NCBI GenBank assembly: GCA_964187785.1 | Contig: OZ076409.1 | Coordinates: forward strand, 30,258,001-30,318,000 | DNA: 60,000 nt | Source of the DNA: Amphiscolops sp. MND2022 | Taxonomy: Eukaryota | Direction of reading: 5' to 3' | Shown: piece after piece, positions 24,024 to 60,000 of the stretch | Position numbering within the stretch: position 1 is the stretch's first letter | Layout of the letters: every line of letters starts with the position of its first letter | Notes under the pieces: generated by a model | The model's database searches: none | Told to the model about the DNA's origin: nothing | Seen by the model: the letters and a program-made list of their open reading frames with translations, nothing else | Program-made: the position numbers and the translations under genes

Positions 24024-24069
24024 CTCAAAATAGCAGAAATCTGGAAAAGAGAAGATATGAAAACAACAA

Positions 24070-24400
24070 TCAAAACTGACGTCACCATAACGGTGACAAA
24101 AATGAAAGTTGGCTAATTACCAACGAAATTGACGTCGGCATAACGTCGACAAAAAGGTTATCAGGGTTAAGAAATTAATCCTATATCCTAAAATGACGTG
24201 ATCAAAACGGTGACAAATTACAAAAGTTAGCTATGCTAGCAAAAATGACGTCAGCATAACGTTGACAAGTTTGGCTAAAGGAATTATTTCAATTTCTTGT
24301 TCAATAAAAAGAGTTGTCGACATAACGTCAACAACTGCGGATCGAAAGGATTTAAAAGATTGATTAACCAATCAGAATGAAGGGATTTATCCCAACATTC
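24070..24400. promoter_or_regulatory. Putative internal bidirectional promoter with repeated palindromes
   Basis: Lies between divergent starts at 24023 (-) and 24482 (+); TGACGT-led GTCRRC-ATAAC-GKYGAC-like motifs at ~24077, 24130, 24194 (degenerate), 24246, plus a related core at 24316; CCAAT at ~24369. Confidence 0.55.
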
Positions 24401-24481
24401 TCAGCAATCCTAATTATCCGGGAAAATTCATTGTGAAACAATCAAACTCGAAAAACAGCAGCCAAGAAATTTCATCACAGA

Positions 24482-36200: not shown

Positions 36201-39200
36201 TAATGATGTAAACGTTTTAAAACACACTGTATTTCATATTACCCATATTTCTCCGAACCAAAACCTCCTCTCCGTCGTTCTTCCCTTCGTAAACCTAATG
36301 TAGAAATTCATAATTTACAACCATCTCAAATTTTAACCCGTCCTCTTCCCTCACTGCCATATTCACCTGATACTCAACAGTTCCTCAATAAATTTAACTG
36401 ATGATGAATATTCAAAACTAGGCTCCATTCTTGTTGAATACCGAAATTGCTATGCAACCCACAAAAATGACGTTGGTCAAATAGCTACTCCTTTTCGAAT
36501 TCGCCTCAAACCTAATGCTAAACTCCAAACCCAAAGACCTACAAAAGTCCCTATCCATTAGAGAGAAAAACTCAAAAAACTACTCGATGAAGTACAGAAA
36601 CACAATGTTATTCGCCAAATTGGTTCTACCCCATCTGATAAATCCATTTATGGTACCACCTTTTTAAATCCTTTCATTATTATCCCCTAAGGAGATACTA
36701 TTAAAGTTGTCCTAGATGCAAGACATCTAAACTCAAACACTGATCAATCTTTTGAATCTTGGCCTATTGAACCTTTATCTCCTCAACTTGCACGCGCAAA
36801 CAAAAATTTTAAATCAGCTATCGATTTAATGTGCGCTTATGCCCATGCCCCCTTAGATGAAAAAACCATAATATTAACTAGTTTCTCATCCGGAGATAAA
36901 CGTTATGCCTTTACCCGAGGTTTTTATGGCCTTAAATGGCTGCCCAATTTTTTCACGAAACAAATGTATTCAGTTTTTCAAAAACTCATTGATCAAGGTT
37001 TTGCACTTGTTTACAACAAGGATATTCTCCTTCTTGCCTATACGAAAACTCATATGATAGACATAACCGAACAATTACATCAAATTTGTTACTCGAACAA
37101 TCTTAAAATTGCTCCTGAAAAATCATTTTATATTCTTCTCACTGTCAAACTTCTTGGACATGAAAGTGGTCACAACACTATTAAACCCATCTGTTCTAAA
37201 GTTGATGGTATACACAAATTAAAATCACAAACTTCTAAAACCGAGTTGATGCGTTTTATCGGATCAATGAACTTTTACTCCAAATTTATTAACAAACTAC
37301 ATATTTCTTTGAAACCCTTTTACACTCTCGTCCATGATGATGTTTCCTTTGAATGGACCTCTGATCTTGATAAACTTTTTAACGAAATTAAATTCTCCCC
37401 TTCTAAAGATGCAGAACTTGCTGTTCCTATTACCACTCACCCTTTTTATATAACCGTTGATGCCTCCCTAATTGGTCTAGGCGCAGTTTTATTTCAACCT
37501 AACTCCAATAATAAAATGCAGGTAATCTCTTACAACTCTCGTATTTTAACAACTCAAGAACAAAAACTTTCTACATATGACCGAGAACTCTGTGCCATAA
37601 CTTTTGCTCTTTCCCAATATGAATTTATAGTAATTGGTTCTTAATTTCCAATACCTATCTTCACAGATCACAACCCCATTCTTTTCCTTTTTACCCGTAA
37701 AGGTAATTTTACTCCCAGACAATATAAAGGTCTAATGGTACTAACCAAATTCTCCAACTTACAAATTAATCATTCAGCTGGTACAAACCTTACTGTTGCT
37801 GACATGCTCAGTACAGACTATTCAACTATTAATAATAAAACATGCCAACTCCAACATAAAACCCTTCCTCCACACATCGATTTTCTTCAACTTAAAAATG
37901 ATAATATCTTAAAACCGATTCATTATTTCGTCAAACATGAAGATGTATGTACTCCCTACACAAAAAATGATTCACATCTCATCCTAGTTGATAATGGTCA
38001 TGATCAATTCACACTTCGTATCCAAGATAAAGGAAATATTGTTAAATATACCCCTCTTGACTCTTTCTTTTTTCAATCTGTCTCTCCTCTTTTTAATTAA
38101 ATATAAAAAGCCTTTGAAAAATAAAGTTAAAACTTTACTTCAAGAAAATCCTCTTTTAAATGAAACTGATTTATATGAAACCGACGATCCCTTTATTACA
38201 CGAATCCTTAAACAAGATTTACAAACATCCCAATAACTTCACACCTTTCTCGCTGAAATACAATACCACAATTTTAACGACATTCACGTGTTCCAAGACA
38301 TTTTAACTAATATCACGAACTCCTCCTCTAGGGTTATCAACGCCACTAACACTAATGCTATAACCCAAACCCCTATTAAACCTACATCTACTCAATCTTT
38401 GCCATTCTTCGACCCATCCTTTTTTGCTCAATGCAAGGTATTTGAGAATTTTTTCTCCCGTCGGATATTCTTCTAACGCTACCTATTTTGTTTCAAGCTC
38501 AAAAGGATGATACTGTCCTTTCCATTGTTTATAAATGGTTAAAACAAAACAAAGACTCCATTCTTCAACTCCAGTTATTGAAGCAAACTCCTTTTTTATA
38601 CTTTTTACCGACAATTCCAACACCTATATATTGACCCAAACTCACATCTTATTCAATAATATACACCTAATTCTCGAATCTTTGAAGAAATCTTCATCAA
38701 AACTCAACTTTCTTTTAATCAAACTCGCATATGTTTACCATTTAAACTCTTTTATGCCGCTTTTAATAAAACTCATTCTCATGGTCACTCTGATGAAAAA
38801 CTCTCTATTAAAACGTTTTTTCAATTCTATTACATTCCTCATCTTCCTTTATGGTTCCCCATTTTCATTCATGACTGTATTGAATATCAAACAAATAAAC
38901 ATTTTCCTAATAAACCCGAAAACATTTCTCCTCCTCTACCATTTTATGAAATTGGCACTATTTTAATTACCGAATATCAATGGATACTAAAGGCCCCATT
39001 TCTCCTTCTTGTCATAACGAGTCATATATTTTTGTTATCATTGACTGAATATATAAATCAAGATATGGCCCATTTATGTTCTCTTTTCCATATTAACCAC
39101 TCTCCCCGTAATCCACACTCTCCCTGGATAAATGGTTTAGTTGAAGTCCAAAATCGTAACCTTGGCACTCATCTTACAAAACCCTCCTACCAATTGGTCA

Positions 39201-40231
39201 TTTCAAACTCAAATGTATGCTTATGCTCATAATACTACTCTCCTCTCTCAACTTAAACTCTCCCCTTATTAGATTGTTTTCCATACCCATCCTTTTTCCA
39301 AACGCATTCCTTTAACCTTCTCTCTTAATTTACCTCGTGACTCTTCCAAACATGTATAGCATCAAATTGCGACTCTCTCCCCCCTCATACACACTATAGT
39401 ACTCAAGATCTTAACCCCTTTTTCACTCAATTCTTGATAAACCTATTTCCTCATGGCTCTTATCTGCTGAACATGCAATGTTAGAAATATATTCAACTGT
39501 TCACCGCGATACAAATCATAGATTAAATTCTCGAAGCTCTACACTTGAAACAACCCACCTAAAACAGCTACCCCTTCATTCCTTCGTTGTTCATACTAAT
39601 TTTAAACATTTGTGTCAAATTTTCACAAAAACTCAAACCTCTCCGTCTTGGACAATATTAGATTCCTAAACACTTTTCTGAAGTGACCTATGAACTTATG
39701 TTTCAAGACGGCTCCACTTTTCAAACTCATAGAAATAATATATTACCATGTTATCCTAAAGAACCTGTGATTTTTCCTTATTTCAAACAATACCACTCTA
39801 CTCCTTCCCTTATCAATAATCCTGACACCAACTCTTATCAAGACACTTTCTCTCAAGTTTCTCCACTAACTACCCAATCAATCTCTGATCCTTTTCCAAC
39901 TCAAACTTTCACAAAGGATCAAATTGTATCAAATGTTTCCGCTCCCAAATATCAAAATCTTTCATATTGTTCCCCTTTACATGATAATCTACATAATACA
40001 TTTGATTCTACTGACTCTGATTTCGAAATGCTTCCAAATCCAATCTATTATTCAAACTCATCCAATAATTTCTTTCCCCAAATATTTCCTCGTATTGCTG
40101 ACTCCCCCAATACCTCGTTAACTTCTCCAAACGACCCACAAACTGTACCCAATTATACCAGAGCTCCTCATTCTCCATTCAACTTACGTTCACTACCCAA
40201 CCGAAATCATTTCAAGACACAACTTTCATGA
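33250..40231 (+). pseudogene. Decayed Gypsy gag-pol of a different lineage (C/T-rich sense strand)
   Basis: Pro-rich gag with CSFCRKNNHSVSTC knuckle (~34712); LLDSGA protease (~35485); RT with degenerate YNKD; TVDAS and YDRELCAI RNase H; integrase remnants (MDTKGP, NGLVEVQNR); no LTR pair seen. Confidence 0.88.
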
Positions 40232-41293
40232 GCGTGAAAAGCTTATTGAAAATCCTCAAACGCTCCATAAGGGAATTTTCACTGGCCCCCGGTTTTTTTA
40301 TTTTTTGTAATAATATTACCTATTTGTATGTTTTAAAATTTCGGGAAGCTTAAGGTATTTTAATAATTGGTAAAAACAGAGGTTTTTGTATCTACCTTAT
40401 CATGAAACCTGATACGACTTTTAGAGATTTCTAATAAATAACCCCATTCTCAGGATTCCGTATACAAGTATTAAGTATTAGTTATACTACTTCCACAGTT
40501 AACTTATATAGAAATAGTATTTCTTATACACAAAAACGATTTATTGTACACAAATAGGATTTCTTATACCAACCGCTAATATTCCTGATAGAAATGCATG
40601 ATTTTGTAATTTTGTTGAAATTGCGTTTGCAGTGGCTAGCAGCAGTTCGTCGAGTCTCAGTTTTTTTGATAAAGTATTTCTAATACACACTTAGAATACT
40701 TCAATTCTCAAAACTTTATAATTTAATCTATATAATGGTTTAAAAAACTCGATGCCGTCTTTTGACTATCGTGCTCTTCTTTCTTTACGAACAATAAACT
40801 TGCCGTCAGAAGTAGCCTAAAAACTTCCAAGACATTGAACAAGTCAATTCCTCGAATTTCTAGTTGCTAATCAATAACCAAGAAACAATCACAAGATTAC
40901 AGCATGAAACAGAAACAAGTCATTCAAAATGATTCTGTTATCAGGCTGCCAAGGAAGACTTTGTGTTTTTTTGCGATTAGTTCCCGATAATTTTCATAGT
41001 CCTCGTAGTTTCCTCGGTGTCCTTGAACATGAATTTTGAGGGCTTCGAAAGCGAGACTTGTTGTTATTTTGAAACGCACCCCCAAGATGACATGGATGAA
41101 AATTTTCTCTGCATCCGGCCTGGCTTCGAGAACATCCCATCTTTTGCCAAGAAACTCATCAAGCATTTTGTTTCCACGTGAACCCCGGTCCTCGTTGATG
41201 ATGAACTTCTGTCAATGGAAGAAGACGAAAAAAAATACAATTGTAAAACAAATTTTCAAGGCTCTGGAATGTATAATTTTGACATAAAGTTTG

Positions 41294-42515
41294 TTACTCA
41301 ATTTGAAAACCCTCGGAGTTAAAATGTTGAATAAATAAATTGTTTGAACGTTTCAATGTCCTGGGAAGTTCAAAACATACATTCAAGTGTTTCCAAAACA
41401 TTGTTGCTAACGATGCTAAAAACGATGTTGATGTGTAGCATATGCTCACCGAGTCTCTAGATGCGTCACAGCCCAAAATTTGCTTGATGTAGAACGGCAC
41501 AGGACTGTATATGATTTCGTTGTGGCTGATTGTGTCGTAAGAGAGGAAAAGTTCCCGTTTGATGGCTGAAAGAACAATGAAAACTTCATCAACTGAGTGC
41601 AAGTTAGGTTTTCGCTCTGTGAGTTCTGGGGATTTCATATAGTTCAATTCCTGTTGCTGCTTAAATGATTGATTGGGGTCTTCTGCCAGTCTAACTTCTG
41701 TAGCATAGAGTCCAATGTATCTTTTCCTGCCGTCTAAGGTTACTTCTGCCATCGCTGTCGCCTCTTTGCAATTAAAAAAAGCCTTCGCACAACCCCTGCC
41801 TGTGACACGTCTATTACAACACGTGATCCTGTTGCTAGAATTCCGTTCGTAGTAGGAACAAGAGTCAGTCTGACAGTGCTTCAGATCCACACAATGTGCG
41901 CAAAGTTTCACGAATGTTGATCTTTGACGTTTTTTCTTTTTCTTCTGCTTTTACTTCAACTTTTACATTTTTGTCAACTGGGATGTGTATGTTTTCCTCT
42001 TCCGCCACTACTTCTTTTTGCCAGTCCGAATTCGTCAGCTGGTTGTATGAAATATAAAACTTCCCCTCATCGGAGCAAATCAGCAAGGTTTTTCCAAACC
42101 TATCATTGATTAGCACAATTCCAGATTTCAAAACTGATGCTTCTTGGATTATTTGTTTCATCTCTCTAGGCTCCATAATATCACTAACAGATGGGGCAGT
42201 TGATCCAACGTAATGTACTACATCGCCTTTTTCGAATTTTTCTTTGGTGTAACCCAGTTTTTAGTCGATATTGTAGCGTCTGGAAAGTATAACTTCTTGG
42301 AGAGCTTTCCTGACTGGCCATAACTCAAGATCAACTTGGGGGTCACAAAAGAGCACACGAACAGTGTTTTTGTTTTTTCCCCAGCGAATAAAATTGACAC
42401 GAACATGATTGGTGCCCTCAAAGCCTTCGATTTTAGCTTCCTCCCAAATTTGAGTGTCAGGATCCAAAGCTTGAATGACTGGTTTAGTCTGGAAAAACAA
42501 ATTAGCAAAAAGCAT
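41294..42515 (-). pseudogene. Fragmented gene with N-terminal Tudor/chromo-barrel-like domain and Cys-rich region
   Basis: VIQALDPDTQIWEEAKIEGFEGTNHVRVNFIRWG resembles PHF20-type Tudor/Agenet pattern; CAHC...HC...C...CC...C...C cluster; consecutive ORFs in shifted frames. Confidence 0.45.
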
Positions 42516-42564
42516 TACTGATTGATTTACAATTAGTTGAGCTTTTTCAATCGAGGGGATTTAA

Positions 42565-42962
42565 ACGAGAAGATGAATGATGAAAATAGCTGGTTGCCGA
42601 ATAGTTTTATAATGCGTCTTTAGAAATCTTAAACTGCCTCACTTCCGTTCTGGTGTTTGCCTCACATTATTGGTGGTGTAGCTAGTGTGAATTTGAGGTG
42701 AATTAAAAAAGAACGATGGAAATAGCTTGTTGCTGAATAGTTTTTTATTGCGTCTTCAAATATGTTAAACTGCTTCACTTCCGTTCGGGTGTTAGCCTCA
42801 CATTATTGGTGGTGTAACTAGTGTGAATTCGCGTTGAATTAAAAGAGAACGATGGAAACAGCTTGTTGCTGAATAGTTTCAAAATGCGTCTTTAGAAATC
42901 TTGAACTGCCTCACTTTAGTTGTGTTAAACTCACTACTGGCGGTGTAGCTACTGTGAATTCG
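42565..42962. repeat. ~136-bp tandem repeat (3 copies) between divergent genes
   Basis: Recurring AAATAGCTTGTTGCTGAATAG...CACATTATTGGTGGTGTAGCTAGTGTGAATT. Confidence 0.8.
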
Positions 42963-43134
42963 GTAATACCAAATGAAAATCTTCGGCACCTGTTTCGCTT
43001 TTTGATGCACTTGTTGATGCGTACAGGCAATATTGAATTTAAAATGCCTCAGTTGTGAGTGTTGCTGATTTTTTCAACGATTTTTTAACTATGTTTCAAA
43101 ATCACTTTCATTAATAAACTGTCGATCTTTTACA

Positions 43135-46100
43135 ATGGGTTTTAATAACGAGGAGATGATTCTCCAAAAACATTTAATCGATTGCCCAGAAGGCCTATTT
43201 GTTGATTTATCGTTATTCGATTATTTAGCACAGGAAACAATACATGATAAGCGAAGGAAAGTGAAACCAGCCATCACTTGCCTCGTAAATGGAACGAATG
43301 TTCAATTCGAGTATGTTTTCATTAGTGCAACGCGCAACGAGACAGGTAGAAGAGCAAAATTCAATGCAGTCGCTTTCAAAATTGCACTTCTGCTTGTCTT
43401 TATAGATTCATAGGCCTTTCGTGGACAGATCGTCGTCGACGTTTCGTGGAACACTTTTTTGGTCCCGAATTTATCCCACACGGGGAGCCAGTAGAAAGCA
43501 ACTCGGAAATGGGCAAATTCTTGCGGAAGCTGGACAATCGGGACAAGGAGACAAAGACAGAGAAACAAAGAAGTAAAGTAGGAACAGTAGCAAAAATGCG
43601 GTTTTACCTGAGACAGCTTTTTACACAAGTAGCACTCAATTCTGGAGTGATGTGTTGAGTCAAATGAATAATCGAGGTATGAAAATTGGAAGTTTCATCC
43701 AGTATTTAAAAGATAAAGCCAACAGTGCCATCAAAAGTAACCTTGCACTACGGCCTAACTATTTGAAAGAAATCATGGAAGCACTTTTTCCTTCAAGATA
43801 CACCAGGCAATTCAAGGAGCATTTGTATTCAATTACGAAAACTGGTAATGTTGTTGATTTGCTGGGTTATCGCAAGAATTTATTTGACTGAAACGGTATC
43901 AGAAACGATCAGTTAGTTCCGTGTGTCACAGCAATAAACAAGTTGTCAAAACCTCTCCATTGTTTCTATTACAACATAAGCCAGCCGGAAAAAACTTACT
44001 CAGGATTCAGAGCTGACTTAGTTACCTTAGTGAGAACCTCTCACTACCTCATGACGGGAAGTGAATCATTAGAAGGAGTGGCAGTCGATATTTTGGGTGA
44101 CGGATTTGAAATTGGGAACGCGGAGTGTACGAGGATGGTTTTCCGATTTTTTTTACGCAAAAGGAAAAATCAGTCCACAGTCATCAGATGCATGTTTCAC
44201 GTTTGCTTGCTTCAAAGGTTTGTGCAGAATTGCTTGAAAGCTGTTTAAGTAAGAAAATGAATGCTCTATATTCAACTAAGTTGTTCAAGAAAGTATTTGA
44301 TTTTTATTAACCTAAAACGTTTAAGAAAAAGCATGCTTTATTTCTAAACAAAAATGTTGAGGAAATTGAGTTGCGTAGCAAAATCAACTCAATGAATAGA
44401 ATAGGCTTAAGGTTGTGGATAAATCTTCCTAAAACAAGGACGCGATGGAATCCGCCTTCCATCGTTAAAGGCATAAAAGTTTCTTGAATTTTCAATGAAA
44501 TTTTTCTATCTCAAAGCTTCAAGCATTTGAAAAAATGTTTAAACAACCAAAGTTCTTTTGAACGAATCGTTTCTTCTCTCTAACGAAATATAAAACCACA
44601 ATCATTTCATTGTATTCAACTAACATGTTGAAAAAAATGAATGATTATGCACTGGACAAGTACGGCAAATACAGTGTGAAGAAAGCTGAAATTTGTCTAT
44701 TCTGATTGGCTCACAAAGCCTCTCTGCTTGAATCTCATTGGTTTAACGAGTATCGACAAAATTGGAAGTACTTGTAACAAGATAGGAGTTTCCCTGAATA
44801 TTTTAATTTGTTTTTGTCCCAAAAGTGCACACTTGAGACGTTAAGTTGTTGCATGTTCGCAGGCCATGATAGCAGATTTACAATGGAACAAAACCTTGGC
44901 CCAACAGATGTTGGAGTTCAAACAAGTGGATGGCTTTACCAACAGACAAAGACGTTGGTCGAGGTATACAAAGTGAATCAGACGTTGTCCGGTGATCAAC
45001 CATTTGTAATGCGGCTAGTTAATGGTGACAATGTTGAAGACGACTCCAAATGCGCACTCTATGTTGGCAAAAAATCATCAATTGGTTCCATTGACAAAGA
45101 TGGAAAGAAAATTTTCCAACCATTTTTGTCATCAACAGTTGATCCCAACACGAAGAAACGGACAACTTTGGATATTCCCTGGCAGCTGTTGCCGTCAACG
45201 TCCTTAATTTATCTTGACGATATCCGCAGAGTTTTCGTTGGCAATTGCTATGGTATTACAAAGATGGTTGAGAATGACTTACAAAAGTTTTGCAACCAAC
45301 TGATTCAGACCCGCGGGAAAACAATTTACACCGTCCTTAATATATTCGAATCCAATTTAACTGAGAGAGGAGTGAAGGAGCCTATGTTTAGATTTGTTTT
45401 TAATATAAGCAAAACTGGACCAACTAGCTGCAGTTCTGTGTCTTCAAGTGGAAAAGAGGCCCTGCTCGCGATTGCTCATCGGGAGGAATTTGGAAGCGAG
45501 AGTGGAATACGAAGTAACTTTTTTGATGCTGTCTTCAAGGAAAATGAGTACCTTGTTGGCCATCCAGCTCACCTAGAATTTCTCAAAACATATCACAAAA
45601 AACTTTTCAAACATGAAGAAGTACTTTAAGACAAAACAAGTCAATATTTGATGTCAAAATACGATGCGGCAGAGTTATAGCGACAGTCCTTGAACAATAT
45701 GAATATTATTCTCAGAGGTTCGAAAAACGGTTTTCCTCTAAAACTCTTTGATGTTTACAATTTCTGGGCGGATACATATTATCATCTCTCAATGGCTTTC
45801 TTTGGCGAAGTTAAGTCATATAAAGTGAAGCTCCTTCTCATTCCGAAATTAGTCGAAACAGGTTGCATCCGATCACCTTGGGACCACCTAACTGAAGCAA
45901 TGGAGCACTCGAATCACCGCGCGCATCAATTTTACCATCAAATGACAATGCGAGGTGGAGGTAAATTATTTCATGTGGATCCTATGCTTCAAAACCTCGT
46001 TCTATCGTTTTTTCGATGTTATTTACAAAGCGAGCAACAAATTGCTTTTGACGAGTGTATGATACAGCTGCGTAGTAAATTCCAGCCGATTCCAACCTTC

Positions 46101-46745
46101 CATATGGATTACCTATGGAATTGCAGAATACGAATAAAACGAGGTCTATTGAAATCAATGAACATCGTGAAAACAATGAGATTTTTCGAGGCCTGCGTTT
46201 CACCGTGTTTGGAGAATTTCGAAAAGCTAAACTAACGCAGGATCAAGTTAACAACATGATTCTCGAAGGTGGTGGCGTGGTGATGACCCAAGATGTCCTG
46301 AATACACTGACTGAAAAACACGCCCTATTGCCGTTTTGCTATGTTTTAGTACAAAATGAATCAGATCTTAGAATAGCAACTGGTGAGCCAGGGGTTGAAA
46401 TATCAGTGGAGGAACGTGAAAAAGTCGTCGAAAATAGAGAAAGGGTTCTGAAATTAAGATGTTTTGTACAATCGGGAGTTGTTATTTTGAATGTCAAGTT
46501 TTTAGTTGATTGCTTACTTTGTTGACCCTGCAAACTATGAAATAAAACTAGGAACTGACATACCGATAGTCCCCATTCGTGACATGAAGCCATTGTTCAA
46601 ACGACAGTGCGAAGCGGAAGAATTAAAGGAAGGAGTCACCAAAGGGACTTTTGTTTTAATCAAACAATATCGCAAGCAAAACTACTCAAACATCACACAA
46701 GACATCGAGAAGATATTTGGAAAAAGACATACAGAAAATGATTAG
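43135..46745 (+). pseudogene. Fragmented putative DDE transposase (Transib/RAG1-like) with C-terminal BRCT-like domain
   Basis: Candidate acidic triad VDILGDG (~44100), RLVNGDN (~45025), LTEAMEHSN (~45900; compare RAG1 SEGNESGN); IFRGLRFTVFGEF...NMILEGGGVV...KFLVDCL is a BRCT pattern; frameshifts, stops and probable introns. Confidence 0.45.
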
Positions 46746-47009
46746 ATGTATTAGTCATAGTTCAGTACCCTCTATTCTGTTTATTGTTGATTTATTGATT
46801 GTTGATGTATTTTTGGTGATTTGAAACGTTGTTCTTTCTGTAACATTGTATCTCTATCTTCAATGCGAATCCTAATTATTTGAAAAAACATTGCACTCAA
46901 AAGCTTGTTTTCAGACTGAAATTACAGGTGCAAAGGGTTTGGGGTAACAAGATTAATTTAAATCTAAATCTTGTTCGGTTCAATTTTCAACAAATACATT
47001 ATGTACAGA

Positions 47010-47480
47010 AATTGGAACATTTACTTCTCCCCCACATTTTGTATTGTGGAAAGTCAATTTGACTTTCATTCAAAACTTTTCTGGACTATTATCGTTTTCT
47101 GTAATATTTTCTCGAAACGTAAAACCTGATTTAGAATGTTTAAGAATCCAGTGAAAAGGAAAACATTTCGAAAACGTGTGTGAGGGAATGAAAAAAAAGC
47201 CAATAATTTTCAAAAGTTTCGATATAAAATCTAAACTTCCTATTGCTCAAATTACAACAAATACAAAATCCATAAAAATGGGAACTTTCTTTTTCCCCAC
47301 GTTTGTTGTTTAAAAATCAATTTAATTCTCATTCAAACCATTTCGGGACTGAAATCTTTTTCTGTGAGAGTTTGTCAAAACGTAAAACATAATATAAAAT
47401 GATTTAGACTCCAAGAAAATGAAAAACCTTTTGAAAAAGCGTACGGGGAATGAGAAAAAGAACCCAATAGTTTTCACATG
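47010..47480. repeat. ~270-bp imperfect direct duplication between convergent genes
   Basis: CCCCAC...TCAATTT...AAACGTAAAAC...GGGAATGA...CCAATA occurs twice. Confidence 0.6.
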
Positions 47481-47563
47481 ATTCAAAAAAGCAGGTGACA
47501 CTCGCTTTCACCCGTCTGCTGTAGCCGAACTATTCACTGCATCTGCGTTTGTAGCTATGCGAT

Positions 47564-49114
47564 TTAAAAGCGATCCTTGGTTTCATAGGCAAACAAGTTG
47601 TTCATAAAAGTGATTGTTGCCGGCACTTTGGGGTAGTCTGGTAGGTGTTCATTGTACTTCGCGACTACACTCAAACATGCACGGAAAGATCTCCGGAACC
47701 CGTTGCGCATGTTATTGGGTAGAATAGGTGCATGGCCTTCATGAACAGTCCAAATTCGCGAAACGAGGTCTTCTTCATTATTGGGGTGAGGGTATGTTGG
47801 AACTTTACCGTTCGCTTGTTTGCATCGGCAGACAAACTCAGCTACTAGGGCAGCAGATAGGTAGCACAAGTCAGGAATATCTGGCTTTTTTGATCCGCTC
47901 CGTCATAAACTCATTGAGTGCTGCAGCTGAAAAAAGACCCTTTTTGATTTTCATTTTAAAATGTGTAGAGATTGATCTGTAACCTTTGTATTGTAGATGG
48001 AGAACAATCAATATGGAGCAAATTTTCTAATCAATATTCAAGTTTTTGCCCTCCAATTGTGTATCAATTTTTTTTTGAAATATTCAAGAGATACTCACGG
48101 TATTCATAAAAAGCCAAAAAGTTTGTTCCCACAGCCACACTGTTCGCTGTTGTGGACACAAAGTGGAGCGTTCCTGCTGGGATAAAAACGCCTTGTCCAG
48201 TTTTCAAAGTAACTCTATATCCATGAAGATCGCTCCTGCCACCGTAGAACCTGGATATCGATGTCACAGATGATTGGAAGCTGGCCAGTACCTGGCCAAA
48301 CTTGCCGGTCTCGTTCACGAAAACGAAGTCTTTTTCTCCGGCAACGAGGACGTAGAACACTGAGGTTCCACTGAAATCTACATGCCAGTCAGCAAAAGAC
48401 CCAGCTTGACTGAGGACAACGTAGTTCAGCTTCCACACGCTGCTCGTGTCTCTTGGGAGCCTCTTGTGCATCTTGTGTCCCAACGAGACTTCTCTGACAA
48501 ACTTGGCAGGCTTGAACTGCAGACTATTGCTTGTCGTTGCGTTAGTCTCACTTTTAACTTCGTTCTAAAAAAAAACAAGAATATGAAGCACGAGACTACC
48601 TCAAAAACATTTGGAGTTGAGGAATTTGATTTAAATGAAATTTTTGTCTACGTTGATTCAAAAAAAATTGATGACAATGATTATTGATCCTACGTTGTAT
48701 AAGCCTTCTTATGGAAAAACAAGCAAAATCTTTTTACTCCTTTCAGCCAACTGCAGTTCACTGACATTTCTGGATTTTCTTTTGCCAATACTGCACTGAA
48801 TATTCGTTTATCCGTGAGTTCGAGGTCTGCAGCAGAAAAATGTGTGAGAACCCCTTGAGTTTGACAGCATCTTTTATCAGCATTGGTTTTTTGACAGTTT
48901 CAACAAGAGCCTTCTGCAAAAGCTCTGAGTAGTTCTGGTCAACGAATTCAGCAATGTATTGCTTGTAATCGTTCCCCGTTTTGCCCATAGGCAACCGCTC
49001 TACAAGTTGACGTATTTCGGTGGCGTCACCGAATGCTGGGTAGCCATCAACGAATGTTGTGTCAATTGATTTAATTGCTGAAAAAGAACGAATTGAGAAG
49101 CTAGGACTACACAA
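47564..49114 (-). CDS. JmjC-domain histone demethylase-like gene (KDM2/KDM7 type), multi-exon, possibly disrupted
   Basis: YVVLSQAGSFADWHVDFSGTSVFY...GEKDF...GQGVFIPAGTLHFVST...GTNFL; Fe ligands H-x-D (48384-48376) and H (48165-48163) intact; acceptor near 48565, GTGAGT donor near 48098; probable frameshift in an A-run near 47890. Confidence 0.85.
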
Positions 49115-49239
49115 AAAGTAACGTATTTACCAGTGTGTATTGTTCAGAAAATGTTTAAGAAAACGTAGGCCTTCAATTTGCAAACAAATGCCGATAAATA
49201 GCCTATAACAGACTTATATTATTTAAAACTACGTACAAT

Positions 49240-49890
49240 CATAACTGCAGGAAGTTTGTGTCGGAGGAAGTCGTCGCGGAGTCAGCTGTTTTCGCGGAGT
49301 CCGCTTTTTTACAAGAGTAGTAGGCGTAGTCGGAGAAGCGGCAAACGAAGAAGAAGGAATAGCAGGAGTAGATGAAGTCTTCTGAGGAAAAGGAGGTAGA
49401 GGGGGAGTAGGCGCAGGAGCAGAAGACGTAGTACGAGGGGTATCAGGTGTAGGAGGATGAGAACAATCGATACCTTATTAGAAAAATTGTTTTCAACAAA
49501 AGCAATAATTTCTTCCAAACTTTTTTGCAAACGGTTTGAAAAAACTAACACGTTTTCTAGAATAAACATTTGAATATCACGTACGTTACTTTGGAGTCGG
49601 CGACTTTCGAGGACTCCGCTTCTTTGCTGTTGAAAGTGTTACAGTAGTAGAAGGAGTAGCAAACGAAGAAGAAGGAATACCAGGAGTAGAAGAAGCCTTC
49701 TGGGAAAAAGAAGGCAGAGGAGGACCAGGTATATGAGGAGGAGACGGCGGACAACGTAAAAGATGTGAAGACAGAGTAAGGGGCGGACCAGGTATAAGTG
49801 GAGGAGGAGACGGAGCAGGAGGTGTAGAAGGAGGAGACGAAGCACGAGGAAGACTAGGTGATAGTGGCAATGCCGGTGTTGATGAGCCTA
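49240..49890 (-). repeat. Duplicated Pro/Ser-rich low-complexity coding-like segments
   Basis: Two related blocks (49260-49470, 49590-49870) encoding PGPP/PSSS-rich peptide; plausible upstream exons of the JmjC gene. Confidence 0.45.
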
Positions 49891-49994
49891 ATCACAATAA
49901 ACAAAATCCAAGAAGGCAACTCAATTTCAGTTATACTTCGATAATAATTTAAAAAAGACGATGCTAACAGGTACCTCTAAACTAAATGAAACAA

Positions 49995-50790
49995 AATTAA
50001 CAGATAAACTAAAAACTAACATGATGCTGATCTTCTGTTCCACGGCACTGAAGTTCTTGTGGTCGTTATCGTGGTCGGTATTGGGGCTAAAAAACAATTT
50101 GTGAAGTAAAGCATTGAAACCTTTAATCAATTCAACATCAGATAAACTTCCAAATACTAACGAAATATTGATCTCCTTTTCCTTGGTGTAAAAGTTGTTG
50201 TGGTCGTTATCGGGGCTGATAACATTTCGTCAAGTCAAGCATTCAACATCCTAATCAATCAGACATCAGATAAAGTTCGAAAAACTAACAAGTTGTTGAT
50301 CTTCTTTTCCTTGTTGTTGAAGTTGTTTTGGTCGTTATCCGGGCTAAAATTAGTTTTGTCAGGTGAAGCATTGAAATTTTTGATCAATTCAACGTCAGAT
50401 AAAGTTCGAAAAACTAACAAGTTGTTGATCATCTTTTCCTTGGTGTTACAGTTGTTTTGGTCGTTTTCAGGGCTAAAAATAACTTTGTCGAGTGAAACAC
50501 TGAAAATCCTAATCAATTCGACAACAGATAAACTTCGAAAAACTAACAAGTTGTTGATGTGCTTTTCCTTGGCGTTGAGGTTGTTTTGATCGTTATCGGG
50601 GCTAAAAACAAATTTGTCAAGTGGAACATTGAAAATCTAAATCAATTCGACAACAGATAAACTTCGAAAAACTTACAAGTTGTTGATCTTCTTTTCCTTG
50701 GCGTTAAAGTTGTTTTGGTCGTTTTCGGGGCTAAAAACAATTTTGTCAAGTGAAACCTTGAAAATCCTAATCAATTCGACAACAGATAAA
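49995..50790. repeat. 129-bp tandem repeat (~6 copies)
   Basis: CAGATAAA(G/C)TTCGAAAAACTAACAAGTTGTTGAT recurs every ~129 bp. Confidence 0.88.
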
Positions 50791-51364
50791 CAATACATGA
50801 TTGAATTTTTTTTGATGTGAAATTGGAAGTTCAGAAAAGATTTGTGTTTTTAAAAATTTGAGTTGAAAAAGAATAGATATGAAAAATCTTTTTTATACTA
50901 ACGAATGACACACTTCTGTCTTGACGAAGCAGTTGGCTGCAACTCCTTCACAATATGACGACCAGTGTCATCTCTTGTTATTTGGTAATTCTTTTAACCA
51001 GTGGACGACGGAGCAATTGCTTTGTTTCTATATTCGGCCCAGCTAACACCAGCTTTGTACCCTTTTTTATAGTGACCCACGTTCAGAGAAAGAAAAGCTT
51101 CTTTCCTCTCTAAGGTGTATTTGAAGAATCGTTTTTCACGAGTCAGCGCTTGAACGACTTCTCTAGTTGGTGCCAAGTACTCATTGGCATAAGAGTCCGG
51201 GTCAGTAAAGTTTCTGGCCTGAAAATCATCAAACGTTTTGTTTTATAATGGCCTGTGGATTTGACTCTATAATTTGTTTTCGCTGCCATTTACAGTCGTA
51301 GTTCAGAGCATGTTGAGCAGTTGCCGCGGGCGAGTTGAACTCAAAAAACTTCACTTCACCATCT

Positions 51365-51583
51365 TTATCTCTCTTGGCAGTGCCTAACATGCCACAAAAC
51401 ATGTAGGGTTTTCCACTTGTTCCTCGTTATTAAATCATCAGCTGCCTTCAAAACGCAATGTGACAGAAAACCTCTCCGTCTGTGCTGCTTCAAGGTCTTA
51501 TCGGTTTTGAAAATTTCTCCACAATCTAGAAAACAGCAACAATCAACGCCTGTGTGTAAAAAAGATTCTGAAAATTTGTTCAT
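51365..51583 (-). CDS. Exon or fragment with a C2H2-like zinc finger
   Basis: C-x4-C-GEIFKTDKTLKQH pattern with the F and L positions of a classical finger; same strand and upstream of JmjC. Confidence 0.4.
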   Translation of the reverse strand: MNKFSESFLHTGVDCCCFLDCGEIFKTDKTLKQHRRRGFLSHCVLKAADDLITRNKWKTLHVLWHVRHCQER

Positions 51584-51769
51584 ATTACATCACCGAACTC
51601 CACTGGCGTACTTCCAAACATGTATCTCACTGATTTTCAGTGGATTCCGTTGTGATCTGTTTCGTATTCCACTAACATTTAGCTAATGTGCAAGATATAA
51701 GTAGCAAAAATTCGTGCTTTTGACTTCGATATTTAGGCTGACTTCTTGTTTTGTCATTGTTCCTTGTTT

Positions 51770-52600
51770 TCTCTTGGAATGTGAGGTTTTAAATACAGTT
51801 GGGGGTTTAAAAAATTGGCATGATGTACACATGCAGGAGACTTCAGGGAGTAATATTTTGGCTTCGATATTTGTTTTTGTTCGGTTTACCATTTTTCTGA
51901 TCAAAATTTGGCGTACGGCATGGAAGAAAAACCAAGAACCTTGTTCGTTTTTTCTATTTTGAAATGAACGAAGATTTGAAATGCGAAGTTCAAAATTCAT
52001 TTGGTGGTTTAAAAAATTGGCATGTACACGTACAGGAGATTTCAGGGGAGTATTTTGGCTTCGATTTTTGTACTTGTTCGCTTTACCATTTTTCTGATCA
52101 AATTTTGGCGTACGGCATAGAAGAAAAACCAAGAAACTTGTTCATTTTTTCTATTAGTTGAAATGCGAAGTTCAAAATTCAAGTGATGATTTACAAAATT
52201 GGCATGTACACGTACAGGCGATTCCAGGGGAGTATTATTTTGGCTTCGATTTTTGTACTTGTTCGCTTTACCATTTTCTGATCAAATTTTGGCGTACGGC
52301 ATTGAAGAAAAACCAAGAAACTTGTTCATTTTTTTCTTTTATTTGAAACGCGAGGTTCAAAAATCAAATGGCGGTTTGAAAAATTGGCATGTACACATGC
52401 AGACGACTTCAGGGAAGTCTTGTTTTGGCTTTGATTTTTGTGCTTGTTCGATTTACCATTTTTCTGATCAATAATCGTCGCACGTCAAAAGAGACAAACC
52501 AAGAAACCTGATCATTTTTTCTATTTTTCGGAATGACAGGTTCCTAATACAATTGGGTTTAAAAGTTGACGTGTACACAAGCAGGAGACATCAACGGAAC
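51770..52600. repeat. ~185-200-bp tandem repeat (4-5 copies)
   Basis: AAAATTGGCATGTACAC...TTTACCATTTTTCTGATCA...AAAACCAAGAAAC recurs at ~51812, 52014, 52196, 52382. Confidence 0.85.
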
Positions 52601-52703
52601 ATAGGCACATAGTTTTTGCTTTGAAATGTAGGCTTGTTTGTTCTTAATTTTTAGGCACCATGTTCAAGTTTTTATTTAGAACTCATAATTGTATAAAAAA
52701 TTA

Positions 52704-53172
52704 CAGTGCTGTGATTAAGATGTCGCCCCCTGTGATGTTCTCAGCCAATCAAAATTAAAATTGTTTATTTGGTCTCATTTTCAATACTGATTGGCACATG
52801 AAGAGAAATTCGCGTAAATTTGAGAAATTTTACCTTTTGAGCCTGATATCTCGGAAACGGTTGATCATTTTTGAGGTCAAAATATATCTATCAATACAGT
52901 AGATGTTTGGGAGTTAATTGAGCATAAAATTTGTCAAAAAACTGTGGATAAAACGGTCAAAATAAGTAAAACGGAAAGAAGTCTCATTCTGCTCAAAATT
53001 AGCTATTTGTACCTTTCTCAATTTTTATCTCAGAAATTTTTAAAACTTACTAATGTAAACTAGATGAAATTCTAAGAAACTTTTATTTCTGATGTTTTTC
53101 AAAAGTGCAACCAATTTTGAGAAAATCGAGCCTTAAAAACGCCCGGGGGACGTTTTCTCAATCACAGTACTC
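52704..53172. mobile_element. MITE with imperfect TIRs and TA flanks (Tc1/mariner-like)
   Basis: TA|CAGTGCTGTGATTAAGATGTCGCCCCC ... GGGGGGACGTTTTCTCAATCACAGTACTC|TA. Confidence 0.65.
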
Positions 53173-54501
53173 TATTTAGACAGAGTTTCGGAATTGTTGG
53201 ACTTACCGTTACATAGAGGCATCGCTGGTTGTTTAGAAGTAAGAGAATAACAGGGAAATACAATACTGTAAGAAAAGAACTGAACCCTTATTTGTAGTAA
53301 ATAATTTGGAATGCATGTAAACAAAACTAGCATTTCACATGACGACATCTTCCATTCTCTTTTACTGATGAATTCAAGGGACCTTGGAATGGAAATGAAC
53401 TTTTTCTGTTTTGGGATGCTGAAATATTTTCTACGCTAATATCAGTGTACACGCGTTTTTTGTCTCCATGCTCAGTCTTGTGTTTTATTTCTTGTAATTC
53501 AAAACATAAATGCCTTTTTTTGTGCGAAAATTATGGATACTTTGGAAAATTTCAAAAAACTTTTTCCACAAATATTGGTTCAGTTTATTTCTTACACTAT
53601 GGTCGAAGGTTTATGCTCGAAGGAAAGTAAGTTGATGCTTGCAATAATCAGAAGTTTATTCTAGAAAGTAGTGTAAAGAAATGGAAGCATTAGTCAATGT
53701 CTGTTCCCAGCGGTCAACTGATTTTAGCGTTTCAGCTAATCAAATTAGAGCACTGTTGATAATTTTGTTGATTTCATTGACAGTTAATGCGCTTTGCGAA
53801 CTGTGGTAAAATTTACTTTAATCTCTCGATTACTGTTGATGAAAATCGATGCCTGTTCTTTACATTACATAAACAGATTAGTCTGAAATACTGTTTAAGA
53901 AAATCGATGCAAAGTTGATATCATCATTTTTTATTGGCTCGCAGAATTGTTTACAAAACAACGTAGATTGAACTTAGAAATGGTGTTCCGCTAGAAAAAG
54001 TCAATGATTAGGCACCCAATAATTACAATCAAGATTATAAACAGATAATTTGTTTTAGATAACAAAAAATTTTGTTGTGAAAAGAAACAGACCCTTTGGA
54101 AACTGAGAGCTTTCATCCCATAAGTTTGATGCTGCAAATGTTTGGCAGTTGAATGACTATTGCAAACTTTGAGAGGATTAATTGTGTTCTCTCGAGTACT
54201 GTTGAACAAAATCGATGCCTGTTCTACATATTACAAATTAGTTTCGAATCTTGTTTCACAAAGTCGATGCAAAGTCGTTTCATTCAAATTTCGGTGGATC
54301 CGAGATCCATTACCATATTGACGTGGAATGAACATAGAAATGTGTTAATGTGTTACTGTTCGAAGAGTTCAAATGATTATGAAAATCGATGCACCCATGA
54401 ATTACAAGTAGGAACAATAATTTTAGGCTGAAAATCCCTAAAATTGACGCCTTTTCAGGCGAAAAAGGATGAAAACAGGCAAGAAAACAAACACGTGAAT
54501 T

Positions 54502-57500
54502 AGGCAAACATAACAAAAGCTTAGAATTGTACTTAACGAACATCTATTTATTGAGTTTTTTTAAAATTGATTAGTCTGTCACTCACAAAGGCGTTAAATA
54601 CCGAAAATAGTTGTTCCACGTGTACTGCCGTGCATGGGGCAAGCGATAATTGACCACTTTCTTCAGGCTCCGAAACACCTGCGTTGTTTCCTCGAGCAAT
54701 TCCACAACTTTCGTCTGTCCTTCATTTTTCTGTATCAGGTCCTGAAATTGTTTGAGGAGATCAGATACCATTTTTCATGTTTCCGAAAATTACAATCAAG
54801 ATAAAGATAAAGTATCTTAGATAATACAAAAGGTTGTTATGAGAAGGAAAGGTCCCCGAGAAAGTTCCTTTGAAATTCCAGCCTCTTTATATGACGATAA
54901 TAATGAAACTATTTTCTTGAGCGATTCAAGTCAAAATTTAGACAAATTACACCACTCACAAGTTTGTGGTACAAAAACTGATACTTATAACTCAAAAAGT
55001 GAAAAAAATGAATTTCTTATACAATTCGTTGCAAAGAAACATTAAAAATTTTTTCTGGAACAGTTCAACCTCAAGTTCAAATAGTTAATCAGCTCCCACC
55101 AGTTAGACATAGAAAAACTGATTCTTCCAATATTCAAAAAGTAAAACAGTTGATTTCTTTATTTTATTTCATCCCGAAGAAGAATTATTTTTTAGTTGTC
55201 AGTCTAAAAAGGCATCAGGTCATATTTAAAACTTTGGGTAATCAATAAAACTAGTATGTATGTGTAACTGTAGTTAATCAAGAGTCGACTCAAATTCAGG
55301 CGTGATTACAGTCAATTACGTGTGAATTGAGCATACCAGTTTTTGTGAGTGATAATCCTTGTAAATATCATTCCAATCTCCAGTTTTCTATCGAACACGT
55401 GCAATTCGAAACTATTGCTTTGAGTTAAAAAATTTTAAATCTTGACATGAGCCAACAAACTCTTGTTCTCTAGCCTGAAAACATCGTTCCTTGTGTGATA
55501 TCAACAAAGATGACGAGTCCCACCGAGTCCAATTTCGCTAACACCGCGGAAGAACTGGCTTCTGAAAATGTAGTTTCTCAATTACCTTCAACGAAAATAA
55601 CGAGAGTCAAATTTTGCTAAAACTGCGGACGAACTTGCTTCTGAGAATGGAGATCTTCAATTTTCAACGTTGGAATATTCACAATTGCTCTCTCAACCTA
55701 TTTTCTCAGACTCCCGTTTTCAGTACTTCTGCGCTCTTGCTGAGAGGGGTGTCTGAAATTCTTCCAACGCCGCCTGCTACTCCTCGCGCTGATACACAGG
55801 CCGTAAGTGCTTCTTTCGATTACCAGTTCAATCTTCCAACTTCGACACCACTCAACCCAATTACCTCCCTTCCACAGCTGACCGATTCAATTATAGGCGA
55901 CTTTTTTGCAACGCCAAGTGAGCTGACAATGAACGCCATCACTTCAACTCAATTCCATTTCCAACCTGCTCCAGAGAGCAATCCTGTTCTACTTTCCGAA
56001 GTTCAGAGGAAACGAAAAGGCCCGTGCGAGAATGAAGAAGGCAAACATAACAAAAGCTTAGAATTGTACTTAACAAACATCTATTTATTGAGTTTTTTTA
56101 AAATTGATTAGTCTGTCACTCACAAAGGCGTTAAATACCGAAAATAGTTGTTCCACGTGTACTGCCGTGCATGGGGCAAGCGATAACTGACCACTTTCTT
56201 CAGGCTCCGAAACACCTGCCTTGTTTCCTCGAGCAATTCCACAACTTTCGTCTGTCCTTCATTTTTCTGTATCAGGTCCTGAAATTGTTTGAGGAGATCA
56301 GATACCATTTTTCATGTTTCCGAAAATTACAATCAAGATAAAGATAAAGTATCTTAGATAATACAAAAGGTTGTTATGAGAAGGAAAGGTCCCCGAGAAA
56401 GTTCCTTTGAAATTCCAGCCTCTTTATATGACGATAATAATGAAACTATTTTCTTGAGCGATTCAAGTCAAAATTTAGACAAATAACACCACTCACAAGT
56501 TTGTGGTACAAAAATTGATACTTATAACTCAAAAAGTTAAAAAATTGAATTACCTATACAATTCGTTGCAAAGAAACCTTGAAAAATTTTTCTGGAACAG
56601 TTCAACCCCATGTTCAAATATTTAATCAGCCCCCACCAGTTAGACATAGAAAAATTGATTCTTCCACTATTCAAAAAGTAAAACAGTTGATTTCTTTAAT
56701 TATTTCATCCCGAAGAAGAATTATTTTTTAAGTTGTCAGTCTAAAAAGGCAACGGGTCATATTTGAAAATTTGGGTAATCAATTAAACTAGTATGTATGT
56801 GTAACTGTAGTTATTCAAGAGTCGACTCAAATTCAGGCGTGATTACAGTCAATTACGTGTGAATTGAGCATACCAGGTATTGTGAGTGATAATCCTTGTC
56901 AATATCATTCCAATCTCCAGTTTTCTATCGAACACGTGCAATTCGAAACTATTGCTTTGAGTTAAAAAATTTTAAATCTTGACATGAGCCATCATACTCC
57001 TGTTCTCCAGCCTGAAAACATCGTTCATCGTTCCTTGTGTGATATCAACGAATATGACGAGTCCTACTGAGTCCAATTTCGCTAACACCGCGGAAGAACT
57101 GGCTTCTGAAAATGTAGGTTCTCAATAACCTTCAACGAAAATAACGAGAACCACCGAGTCAAAGTTTGCTAAAACTGCGGACGAACTTGCTTCTGAGAAT
57201 GGAGATCTTCAATTTTCAACGTTGGAATATTCACAATTGCTCTCTCAACCTATTTTCTCTCAGACTCCCGTTTCCAGTACTTCTGCGCTCTTGCTGAGAG
57301 GGGTGTCTGAAATTCTCCCAACGCCGCCTGCTACTCCTCGCGCTGATACACAGGCCGTAAGTGCTTCTTTCGATTACCAGTTCAATCTTCCAACTTCGAC
57401 ACTACTCAACCCAATTACCTCCCTTCCACAGCTGACCGATTCAATTATAGGCGACTTTTTTGCAACTCCAAGTGAGCTGACAATGAACGCCATCACTTCA

Positions 57501-60000
57501 ACTCAATTCCATTTCCAACCTGCTGCAGAGAGCAATCCTGTTCTACAAGTATTTTCCGAAGTTCAGAGGAAACGAAAAGGCCCGTGCGAGAATGAAGAAG
57601 GCAAACATAACAAAAGCTTAGATTTGTACTTAACAAACATCTACTTATTGAGGTTTTTTAAGAATGATTAGTCTGTCACTCACAAAGGCGTTAAATACCG
57701 AAAATAGTTGTTCCACGTGTACTGCCGTGCATGGGGCAAGCGATAATAGACCACTTTCTTCAGGCTCCGAAACACCTGCGTTGTTTCCTCGAGCAATTCC
57801 ACAACTTTCGTCTGTCCTTCATTTTTCTGTATCAGGTCCTGAAATTGTTTGAGGAGATCAGATACCATTTTTCATGTCCCTGAAAATTACAATCAAGATA
57901 AAGATAAAGTATCTTAGATAATACAAAAGGTTGTTATGAGAAGGAAAGGTCCCCGAGAAAGTTCCTTTGAAATTCCAGCCTCTTTATATGATGATAATAA
58001 TAAAACTATTTTCTTGAGCGCTTCAAGTCAAAATTTAGATAAAGAACACCACTCACAAGTTTGTGGTACAAAAATTGATACTTATAACTCAAAAAGTGAA
58101 AAAAAAATTGAATTACCTATACAATTCGTTGCAAAGAAACATTAAATTTTTTTTCTGGAACAGTTCAACCCCATGTTCAAAAAGTTAATCAGCCCCCACC
58201 AGTTGGACATAGAAAAATTGATTCTTCCAATATTCAAAAAGTAAAACAGTTGATTTCTTTAATTACTTCAACCCGAAGAAGAATTATTTTTTTAGTTGTC
58301 AGTCTAAAAAGGCATCAGGTCATATTTAAAAATTTGGGTAATCAATTAAACTAGTATGTATGTGTAACTGTAGTTAATCAAGAGTCGACTCAAATTCAGG
58401 CGTGATTACCGTCAATTACGTGTGAATTGAGCATACCAGGTATTGTGAGTGATAATCCTTGTCAATATCATTCCAATCTCCAGTTTTCTATTGAACACGT
58501 GCATTTCGAAACTATTGCTTTGAGTTAAAAAACTTTAAATCTTGACATAAGCCAACAAACTCCTGTTCTCCAGCCTGAAAACATCGTTCCTTGTGTGATA
58601 TCAACGAAAATGACGAGTCCTACTGAGTCCAATTTCGCTAACACCGCGGAAGAACTGGCTTCTGAAAATGTAGGTTCTCAATAACCTTCAACGAAAATAA
58701 CGAGAACCACCGAGTCAAAGTTTGCTAAAACTGCGGACGAACTTGCTTCTGAGAATGGAGATCTTCAATTTTCAACGTTGGAATATTCACAATTGCTCTC
58801 TCAACCTATTTTCTCTCAGACTCCCGTTTCCAGTACTTCTGCGCTCTTGCTGAGAGGGGTGTCTGAAATTCTCCCAACGCCGCCTGCTACTCCTCGCGCT
58901 GATACACAGGCCGTAAGTGCTTCTTTCGATTACCAGTTCAATCTTCCAACTTCGACACTACTCAACCCAATTACCTCCCTTCCACAGCTGACCGATTCAA
59001 TTATAGGCGACTTTTTTGCAACTCCAAGTGAGCTGACAATGAACGCCATCACTTCAACTCAATTCCATTTCCAACCTGCTGCAGAGAGCAATCCTGTTCT
59101 ACAAGTATTTTCCGAAGTTCAGAGGAAACGAAAAGGCCCGTGCGAGAATGAAGAAGGCAAACATAACAAAAGCTTAGATTTGTACTTAACAAACATCTAC
59201 TTATTGAGGTTTTTTAAGAATGATTAGTCTGTCACTCACAAAGGCGTTAAATACCGAAAATAGTTGTTCCACGTGTACTGCCGTGCATGGGGCAAGCGAT
59301 AATAGACCACTTTCTTCAGGCTCCGAAACACCTGCGTTGTTTCCTCGAGCAATTCCACAACTTTCGTCTGTCCTTCATTTTTCTGTATCAGGTCCTGAAA
59401 TTGTTTGAGGAGATCAGATACCATTTTTTATGTCCCTGAAAATTACAATCAAGATAAAGATAAAGTATCTTAGATAATACAAAAGGTTGTTATGAGAAGG
59501 AAAGGTCCCCGAGAAAGTTCCTTTGAAATTCCAGCCTCTTTATATGATGATAATAATAAACTATTTTCTTGAGCGCTTCAAGTCAAAATTTAGATAAAGA
59601 ACACCACTCACAAGTTTGTGGTACAAAAATTGATACTTATAACTCAAAAAGTGAAAAAAAAATTGAATTACCTATACAATTCGTTGCAAAGAAACATTAA
59701 AATTTTTTTCTGGAACAGTTCAACCCCATGTTCAAAAAGTTAATCAGCCCCCACCAGTTGGACATAGAAAAATTGATTCTTCCAATATTCAAAAAGTAAA
59801 ACAGTTGATTTCTTTAATTACTTCAACCCGAAAAAGAATTATTTTTTTAGTTGTCAGTCTAAAAAGGCATCAGGTCATATTTAAAAATTTGGGTAATCAA
59901 TTAAACTAGTATGTATGTGTAACTGTAGTTAATCAAGAGTCGACTCAAATTCAGGCGTGATTACCGTCAATTACGAGTGAATTGAGCATACCAGGTATTG
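54502..60000. repeat. ~1.55-kb tandem macrosatellite (at least 3.5 units, runs off the window)
   Basis: GGCAAACATAACAAAAGCTTAG at ~54502, 56040, 57600, 59156; the last two units are nearly identical. Confidence 0.95.

Follow-up and report, generated by a model that had tools for sequence, protein, structure and literature searches.

Boundaries and contents of the transposon

The 60,000-nucleotide stretch analysed here (the window) is C1:30258001-30318000, where C1 is contig OZ076409.1 of the 1.07-Gb Amphiscolops sp. MND2022 assembly that served as our search space. It holds a dead copy of a recently spreading transposon lineage, family A, whose genes encode a DDE transposase with a BRCT domain, a Tudor-like protein (gene A), a zinc-finger-JmjC protein, a SET protein and an open reading frame (ORF) of 382 codons. 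The original prediction had placed a possible DNA transposon at 40900..52600, and the gene cluster that it described, with its orientations, tandem arrays (136, 129 and 185 bp) and frameshifts, is present. It had reported no terminal inverted repeats (TIRs) or target-site duplication (TSD); both exist, as 21-bp TIRs at 40208 and 69805 and an AT/AT duplication. The real unit therefore runs from 40208 to window-equivalent 69805 (C1:30327805), 29.6 kb in total with AT on both sides; it is larger than first proposed, overruns the window end by ∼9.8 kb, and includes the 382-codon ORF and the SET gene, which lay outside the earlier limits. The features are as follows.

40206..40207, no strand: left TSD copy (AT); its partner follows the right TIR past the window
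40208..40228, plus: left TIR, 21 bp, 1 mismatch to the family TIR CATTACAAGACACAACTTTCA
40208..60000, plus: element body inside the window, continuing to window-equivalent 69805
40941..41209, minus: predicted gene A exon 2, homologous to the C-termini of sister-family gene A; boundaries read from sequence
41441..42516, minus: gene A exon 1, two or three predicted small beta-barrels; 1 stop, 2 frameshifts
42575..42962, no strand: 136-bp tandem repeat (2.9 copies) that separates gene A from the divergently oriented transposase; ∼1 unit in young copies
43135..44217, plus: transposase exon 1, with the first catalytic Asp (GDG); 1 stop, 5 frameshifts
44863..46745, plus: transposase exon 2, with the second Asp (SGD), DxxH, the catalytic Glu and the C-terminal BRCT; 2 stops, 2-3 frameshifts
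47564..51531, minus: zinc-finger-JmjC gene, one spliced gene, broken in the window
48067..48564, minus: JmjC core, KDM7/PHF8/KDM2-like; Pfam E 3.7e-7, above the cut-off
50021..50791, minus: 129-bp array, repeated 54-nt exons (TPRKRRST-type basic repeats) and introns of the zinc-finger-JmjC gene
50897..51531, minus: zinc-finger exon, C2H2-like; 1 stop, 5 frameshifts
51800..52525, no strand: 185-bp tandem array, lying upstream of the zinc-finger-JmjC gene and found in young copies too
55164..60000, running past the window, plus: tandem amplification, ∼7 units of 1.5-2.4 kb, of the start of the 382-codon ORF
window-equivalent ∼68.0-68.9 kb, beyond the window: decayed SET gene; the right TIR also lies there

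The ends were fixed by comparison of copies. Exact ends matching the family TIR numbered 221 genome-wide as against 0 for the control. For the TSD we examined 23 long loci and excluded 2 without a recognisable end pair; a 2-bp duplication of varying sequence was found in 21 of 21 copies with both ends (chance 0.07 each) and a 3-bp duplication in 0 of 21, with no target-sequence preference seen among these 21 TSDs. The 2-bp duplication also matched in all 7 short elements where both ends were seen. Most of the 221 exact ends belong to short non-autonomous copies; those of 0.27-1.3 kb with family A TIRs and 2-bp TSDs include L031, L037, L040, L054, L056, L057 and L060. The window copy had inserted into a Gypsy element. 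Left and right flanks are contiguous in 11 of 11 relatives, giving the empty site, and in the relative aligned to both junctions (L166) the flanks overlap by exactly 2 bases. The interrupted Gypsy element is itself decayed and C-rich (window 33330-40207), with a second copy in the opposite orientation at C1:30341095. With TIRs, TSD, dispersed copies and a DDE transposase all present, family A is a cut-and-paste DNA transposon.

Copies, sister families and selection on the cargo

The transposase region matched 24 separate genomic loci at 80-100%, and searches with the JmjC gene and gene A led to the same loci with the same gene order. Among the 24, gene A was found at 23, the SET gene at 22, the JmjC gene at 19 and all three at 17, and every close JmjC match adjoined a transposase (19/19). 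The original prediction had proposed searching the genome for copies with the same gene order and shared ends, and such copies were found; the single-copy genes, or genes that do not co-occur, that would have spoken against its idea of one mobile unit were not what we observed. Shared ends, TSDs and the joint presence of all three cargo genes show that this is one mobile unit, with defined ends, gene order and recent spread.

The SET protein is ≥97% identical to the reference at 15 loci, and the dispersed young copies number ∼15 at ∼19.4 kb. Since ten young copies differ by a mean of only 0.17% over 1.85 kb, family A moved recently. A young copy of 19,365 bp carries, in order, gene A (minus), a two-exon transposase with BRCT (plus), a 38-bp array, the zinc-finger-JmjC gene (minus), a 184-bp array, a second 38-bp array, the 382-codon ORF (plus) and the SET gene (plus). 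When nine copies were checked exon by exon, two had no stop or frameshift, except for a one-base difference peculiar to the reference; in one of these two, one short exon was only partly covered. The window copy is older (∼79-85% identical) and nearly every one of its genes is broken. The two 38-bp satellite arrays flank the young-copy zinc-finger-JmjC gene (L064:6664-8030, L065:4438-5370) and persist in the window as remnants at ∼53.7-54.3 kb; they are candidate binding sites, or else deletion sites.

Sister families whose transposases are 35-46% identical carry the same cargo. Family B is 18.9 kb long, its two copies being 99.8% alike; it has a TIR starting CATTACA, a 2-bp TSD in 2 of 2 copies, and the gene order of family A at 29-40% protein identity. 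Families C and D, of 30-40 kb with nested insertions, contain gene A, zinc fingers, JmjC and SET in a different order, and a TSD was found in 2 of 2 copies of family C. The zinc-finger region fused to JmjC differs between families. A tree of 26 transposase cores placed A, B and C/D no closer to one another than to elements from other samples, so this kit of genes is either ancient or has passed from family to family.

Ratios of nonsynonymous to synonymous substitution (dN/dS) between the window copy and a young copy were 0.26 for gene A, 0.20 and 0.24 for the transposase, 0.24 for the JmjC core, 0.22 for the zinc-finger exon and 0.34 for SET; another subfamily gave 0.12-0.14 for SET and 0.13-0.22 for gene A. 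These pairwise values share one reference (the young copy), are not independent and include decay after insertion, and one very close, decayed copy with few changes gave values up to 2.5. They nevertheless show the cargo to have been under purifying selection, with dN/dS like the transposase's own.

The encoded proteins and their known relatives

The splice junction of the transposase is confirmed by intronless homologues, which match the intron position. Outside the assembly we found 23 matches in a first search, 565 representatives at E ≤0.001 and 17 metagenome loci; none of 28 candidates was a relative in a viral contig, and no viral gene was seen in the element. Among homologues long enough to align (109 of 169 proteins), the acidic triad was kept in 54/56 (Asp), 61/64 (Asp) and 72/76 (Glu), and the two residues of DxxH in 66/67 and 68/68. 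The earlier call of a DDE transposase with BRCT is thus borne out, the D-D-E residues being conserved and the BRCT, weak by Pfam in the window (E 0.015), being clear by fold in a homologue model (Z up to 10.7) and a constituent of the transposase across homologues. Comparison with Pfam transposase families and with solved structures gave no sequence match for the transposase. The model of the homologue P0010 aligned with RAG1 (Z 12.5, 371 residues, root-mean-square deviation 9.1), amphioxus RAG1L (BbRAG1L; Z 11.6, 340 residues, 5.1) and HzTransib (Z 9.9, 266 residues, 5.3), with the P element close behind (Z 9.2), and a RAG1/Transib fold is accordingly predicted from this model. The N-terminal part of the family D transposase (L114:1217-4741) contains a 13-residue repeat, in frame and variable in copy number, and a PLAC8-family ORF (E 1.3e-11), cargo or neighbour, lies just 3' of a related metagenome transposase (L142:5886-6887, minus).

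Gene A is present as the original prediction had it, but its Tudor-like character drew no Pfam match in the window or young copy and weak support from folds. In its model, residues 13-74 resemble a Tudor barrel (Z ∼5.6; Tudor Z 5-6) and residues 215-274 a BAH barrel (best Z 8.2), Atlas leads were Tudor/Agenet at 0.83-0.85 (<0.9), and a W, an F/Y/W and a W, candidates for the aromatic cage of a Tudor/Royal-family reader, are conserved in families A-D and in the outside loci. The best fold matches bind several different marks.

The JmjC call was upheld by Pfam, and 14 of 14 solved-structure matches were to KDM7/PHF8/KDM2A/PHF2. In the young copy the gene has 11 exons with AG acceptors and GT donors throughout and reads in frame for 868 codons without a stop, its 5' start not being defined; it joins a C2H2 exon, the 129-bp array, proline-rich exons and JmjC. 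The C2H2 region named in the original prediction exists, although it falls below the Pfam cut-off (E 0.024, young copy) and belongs to the JmjC gene rather than standing apart. The HxD...H iron triad is intact in the window copy, in young copies and in families A, B and C/D. Family A JmjC resembles the KDM2/KDM7 demethylases in sequence, its activity and substrate being putative; it differs from KDM7A/PHF8/PHF2/KDM2A in having a C2H2-like finger and basic repeats instead of PHD/CXXC, and Ala in place of a Thr.

The SET gene was missed by the earlier list of cargo, which did name the reader and eraser candidates, and it is kept more consistently than JmjC. All 14 solved-structure matches place it closest to KMT5A/SETD8 (best E 2.6e-10), with its motifs kept in young copies. 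It is only ∼30% identical to SETD8, so its substrate is not assured. In SETD8, Tyr334 is the monomethyl switch and its replacement by Phe permits dimethylation; the SET proteins of families A, B, C and D all carry Phe at this position. Structures 3F9W-3F9Y are Y334F forms of SETD8 (PMC3529403). A homologue search gave only 6 close relatives (77-99% identical), and neither SET nor JmjC was found among the 17 metagenome loci, whose contigs of ≤7.4 kb are too short to test this. Within the genome there are at least 150 SET-like and at least 150 JmjC-like (KDM7-like) matches, most of them outside family A; many sit in other multi-copy families at 35-47% identity. Apart from JmjC and BRCT, 12 of 14 window frames had no Pfam family and the other 2 were weak. 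No kelch or PHD match was found among 10 young-copy ORFs, and the 382-codon ORF is unassigned.

The CMCT clade (EnSpm/CACTA, Mirage, Chapaev and Transib, together with Plavaka, ESTA and Lanisha) comprises DDE transposons defined, in PMC12730594, by 5'-CA..TG-3' ends, a 2-5 bp TSD and C(2)C and H(3-4)H motifs. Family A shares the CA..TG ends (CATTACA in families A, B and C) and a 2-bp TSD, and its lineage has the D-D-E triad, DxxH and the predicted RAG1-like fold. It differs in that a CxxC between the second D and DxxH occurs in only 2 of 56 homologues, at unrelated places, that H(3-4)H precedes the catalytic E in 0 of 72, a conserved PYKxK standing there instead, and that it has a C-terminal BRCT and a Tudor-like partner gene. 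The zinc motifs by which the CMC/Transib clade is defined are missing from the family, which therefore has the look of an unclassified lineage; although it works in the manner of a CMCT element, assigning it to the clade should await a wider comparison. Animal EnSpm elements with 2-bp TSDs exist. The comparison made here used plant criteria, by which EnSpm/CACTA elements have CACTA termini and a 3-bp TSD (10.64898/2026.08.24.746577), whereas family A has CATTA termini and a 2-bp TSD.

The best fold matches of the modelled homologue point to Transib/RAGL, and the two-gene core, with a partner bearing a putative methyl-lysine reader (PHD in RAG2L, predicted barrels here), recalls ProtoRAG/RAGL (PMC10462144). 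In Transib/RAGL, however, the TSD is 5 bp rather than the 2 bp seen here (21/21), and the zinc site is absent here; the RAGL partner is convergent, whereas gene A is divergent and matched neither the kelch nor the PHD domain of a RAG2-like partner. SET genes in HarbingerS and MuDR elements of Phytophthora and TET/JBP in fungal transposons (PMC12730594) are likewise chromatin- or DNA-modifying enzymes borne by DNA transposons, but the transposase groups and hosts are different and each carries one enzyme as against a writer, an eraser and a putative reader here. Literature searches that did not extend to Repbase Reports or to most subscription papers listed no publication describing this element or any animal DNA transposon with both JmjC and SET, so that a Repbase entry is possible.

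Proposed function of the cargo and its alternatives

We think it fairly probable that the window locus is a decayed transposon with a predicted RAG1/Transib fold in its transposase, whose SET, zinc-finger-JmjC and Tudor-like cargo holds the chromatin of the element itself in a state that permits its expression and movement. In such a scheme the transposase would bind the TIRs and cut with a 2-base stagger, and gene A, always head-to-head with it, would supply an accessory partner that binds chromatin. Recruitment of the KDM7-like JmjC to the element, perhaps at the internal tandem arrays, would fall to the zinc finger, and the JmjC would remove repressive mono- and dimethyl marks; the methyl mark written by the SETD8-like enzyme would be on H4K20 or on a target other than a histone. 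PHF8/KDM7 remove H3K9me1/2, H3K27me2 and H4K20me1 (PMC6130214). The most likely reading is a self-directed control of chromatin analogous to VANC of the Arabidopsis VANDAL elements, for which anti-silencing acting on DNA methylation has been shown by experiment (PMC5735166). In both, the element encodes an accessory protein and has internal tandem repeats that change fast and vary from family to family; the family A cargo, by contrast, resembles histone enzymes, and its binding to the arrays is putative.

Several observations weigh against this interpretation. Five loci have no zinc-finger-JmjC gene (no match at E 0.1), and since four of them are 95-98% alike, a subfamily has spread without it, perhaps with JmjC supplied in trans. 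The SET writer is kept more often than the JmjC eraser (22/24 against 19/24), and the use of a SETD8-type writer as an anti-silencing tool is not obvious. A conserved Thr of the KDM2/KDM7 JmjC demethylases has a role in 2-oxoglutarate binding; it is kept in solved relatives and in families B and C/D, yet family A has Ala at this position, three residues before the first His, in both window and young copies. The gene A model is poor, with a mean predicted local distance difference test score (pLDDT) of 41.6, so that its Tudor/BAH-like barrels suggest a methyl-mark reader with low confidence. The fold of the transposase is taken from a homologue only 34% identical (pLDDT 62.8), for which Foldseek returned nothing at E 0.001 and just weak BRCT rows. 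Finally, the 382-codon ORF and the last JmjC exon, with dN/dS ∼0.4-0.55, are under weaker constraint. The earlier idea of a reader and eraser countering silencing is inferred: the eraser keeps its iron triad, but its Thr is altered and five loci do without it, and the reader is identified with low confidence.

An alternative that we regard as unlikely, yet deserving of weight, is that the cargo serves the cutting step: SET would mark H4K20 at the donor or target, gene A would read the mark and the BRCT would engage repair, thereby steering integration or the repair of excision breaks. The retention of gene A (23/24) and SET above that of JmjC fits this, as do the Phe of all element SETs, the constancy of the BRCT in the transposase, and the head-to-head position of gene A, seen in 5 of 17 outside loci although many contigs are too short to show gene A. 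The 53BP1 Tudor and ORC1 BAH domains read H4K20 methylation (PMC6130214), and there would be a parallel with the PHD reader of RAG2L (PMC10462144). On the other hand, the best fold matches of gene A, a reader of putative specificity, bind a range of marks, the low identity to SETD8 leaves H4K20 unassured as a substrate, and the TSDs show no preferred target. A bolder and still doubtful combination is a widespread, unclassified RAG1-fold lineage that dropped the zinc site, gained a BRCT and acquired a Tudor-like partner, and that in this animal has a full reader-writer-eraser set: an H4K20-dimethylating SET, a barrel protein reading that mark and guiding the transposase, and a zinc-finger-targeted demethylase removing repressive marks from the element's own copies.

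That the enzymes work in trans on host targets, be it cell-cycle, germline or stem-cell genes or silencing as a whole, and help the element only by that indirect route is improbable. The many SET-like and JmjC-like matches outside family A suggest a large shared pool, and the spread of the JmjC-less subfamily would fit supply in trans; the fusion of JmjC to a zinc-finger region differing between families is instead what family-specific targeting would lead one to expect. Most improbable by far is that the cargo consists of captured host fragments, carried as neutral passengers, or of separate elements piled up by chance: the stops and frameshifts of the window copy and the frequency of nested insertions accord with this, but it is contradicted by cargo dN/dS near the transposase's own, by co-occurrence, by one TIR pair and one TSD enclosing all genes, by an in-frame 11-exon gene, and by the recurrence of this cargo in families that are no closer to each other than to elements in other samples.

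Anti-silencing encoded by transposons has been shown in plants, and in fungi and oomycetes it has been suggested. The same question becomes directly testable in an animal through a DNA transposon that brings a putative histone writer and eraser of its own, is subject to selection and continues to spread, since near-identical copies with and without the demethylase gene share one genome. The predicted fold would extend RAG1/Transib to a lineage in which the clade-defining zinc motifs are missing, and elements of this type can make SET and JmjC gene families look larger than they are in genome annotations.

Elsewhere in the window, positions 12042-26110 contain a Gypsy element with long gag-pol frames (13189-19700) between two 52-bp arrays. 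ORFs opposite to gag-pol at 19962-23787 had no Pfam match, and similar ORFs are nested in L082 and L091. Within the transposon, a small insertion at 52699-53177 has 32-nt ends that are 75% complementary, and part of it is 71% like the young-copy transposase intron; it is probably an unrelated miniature inverted-repeat transposable element.

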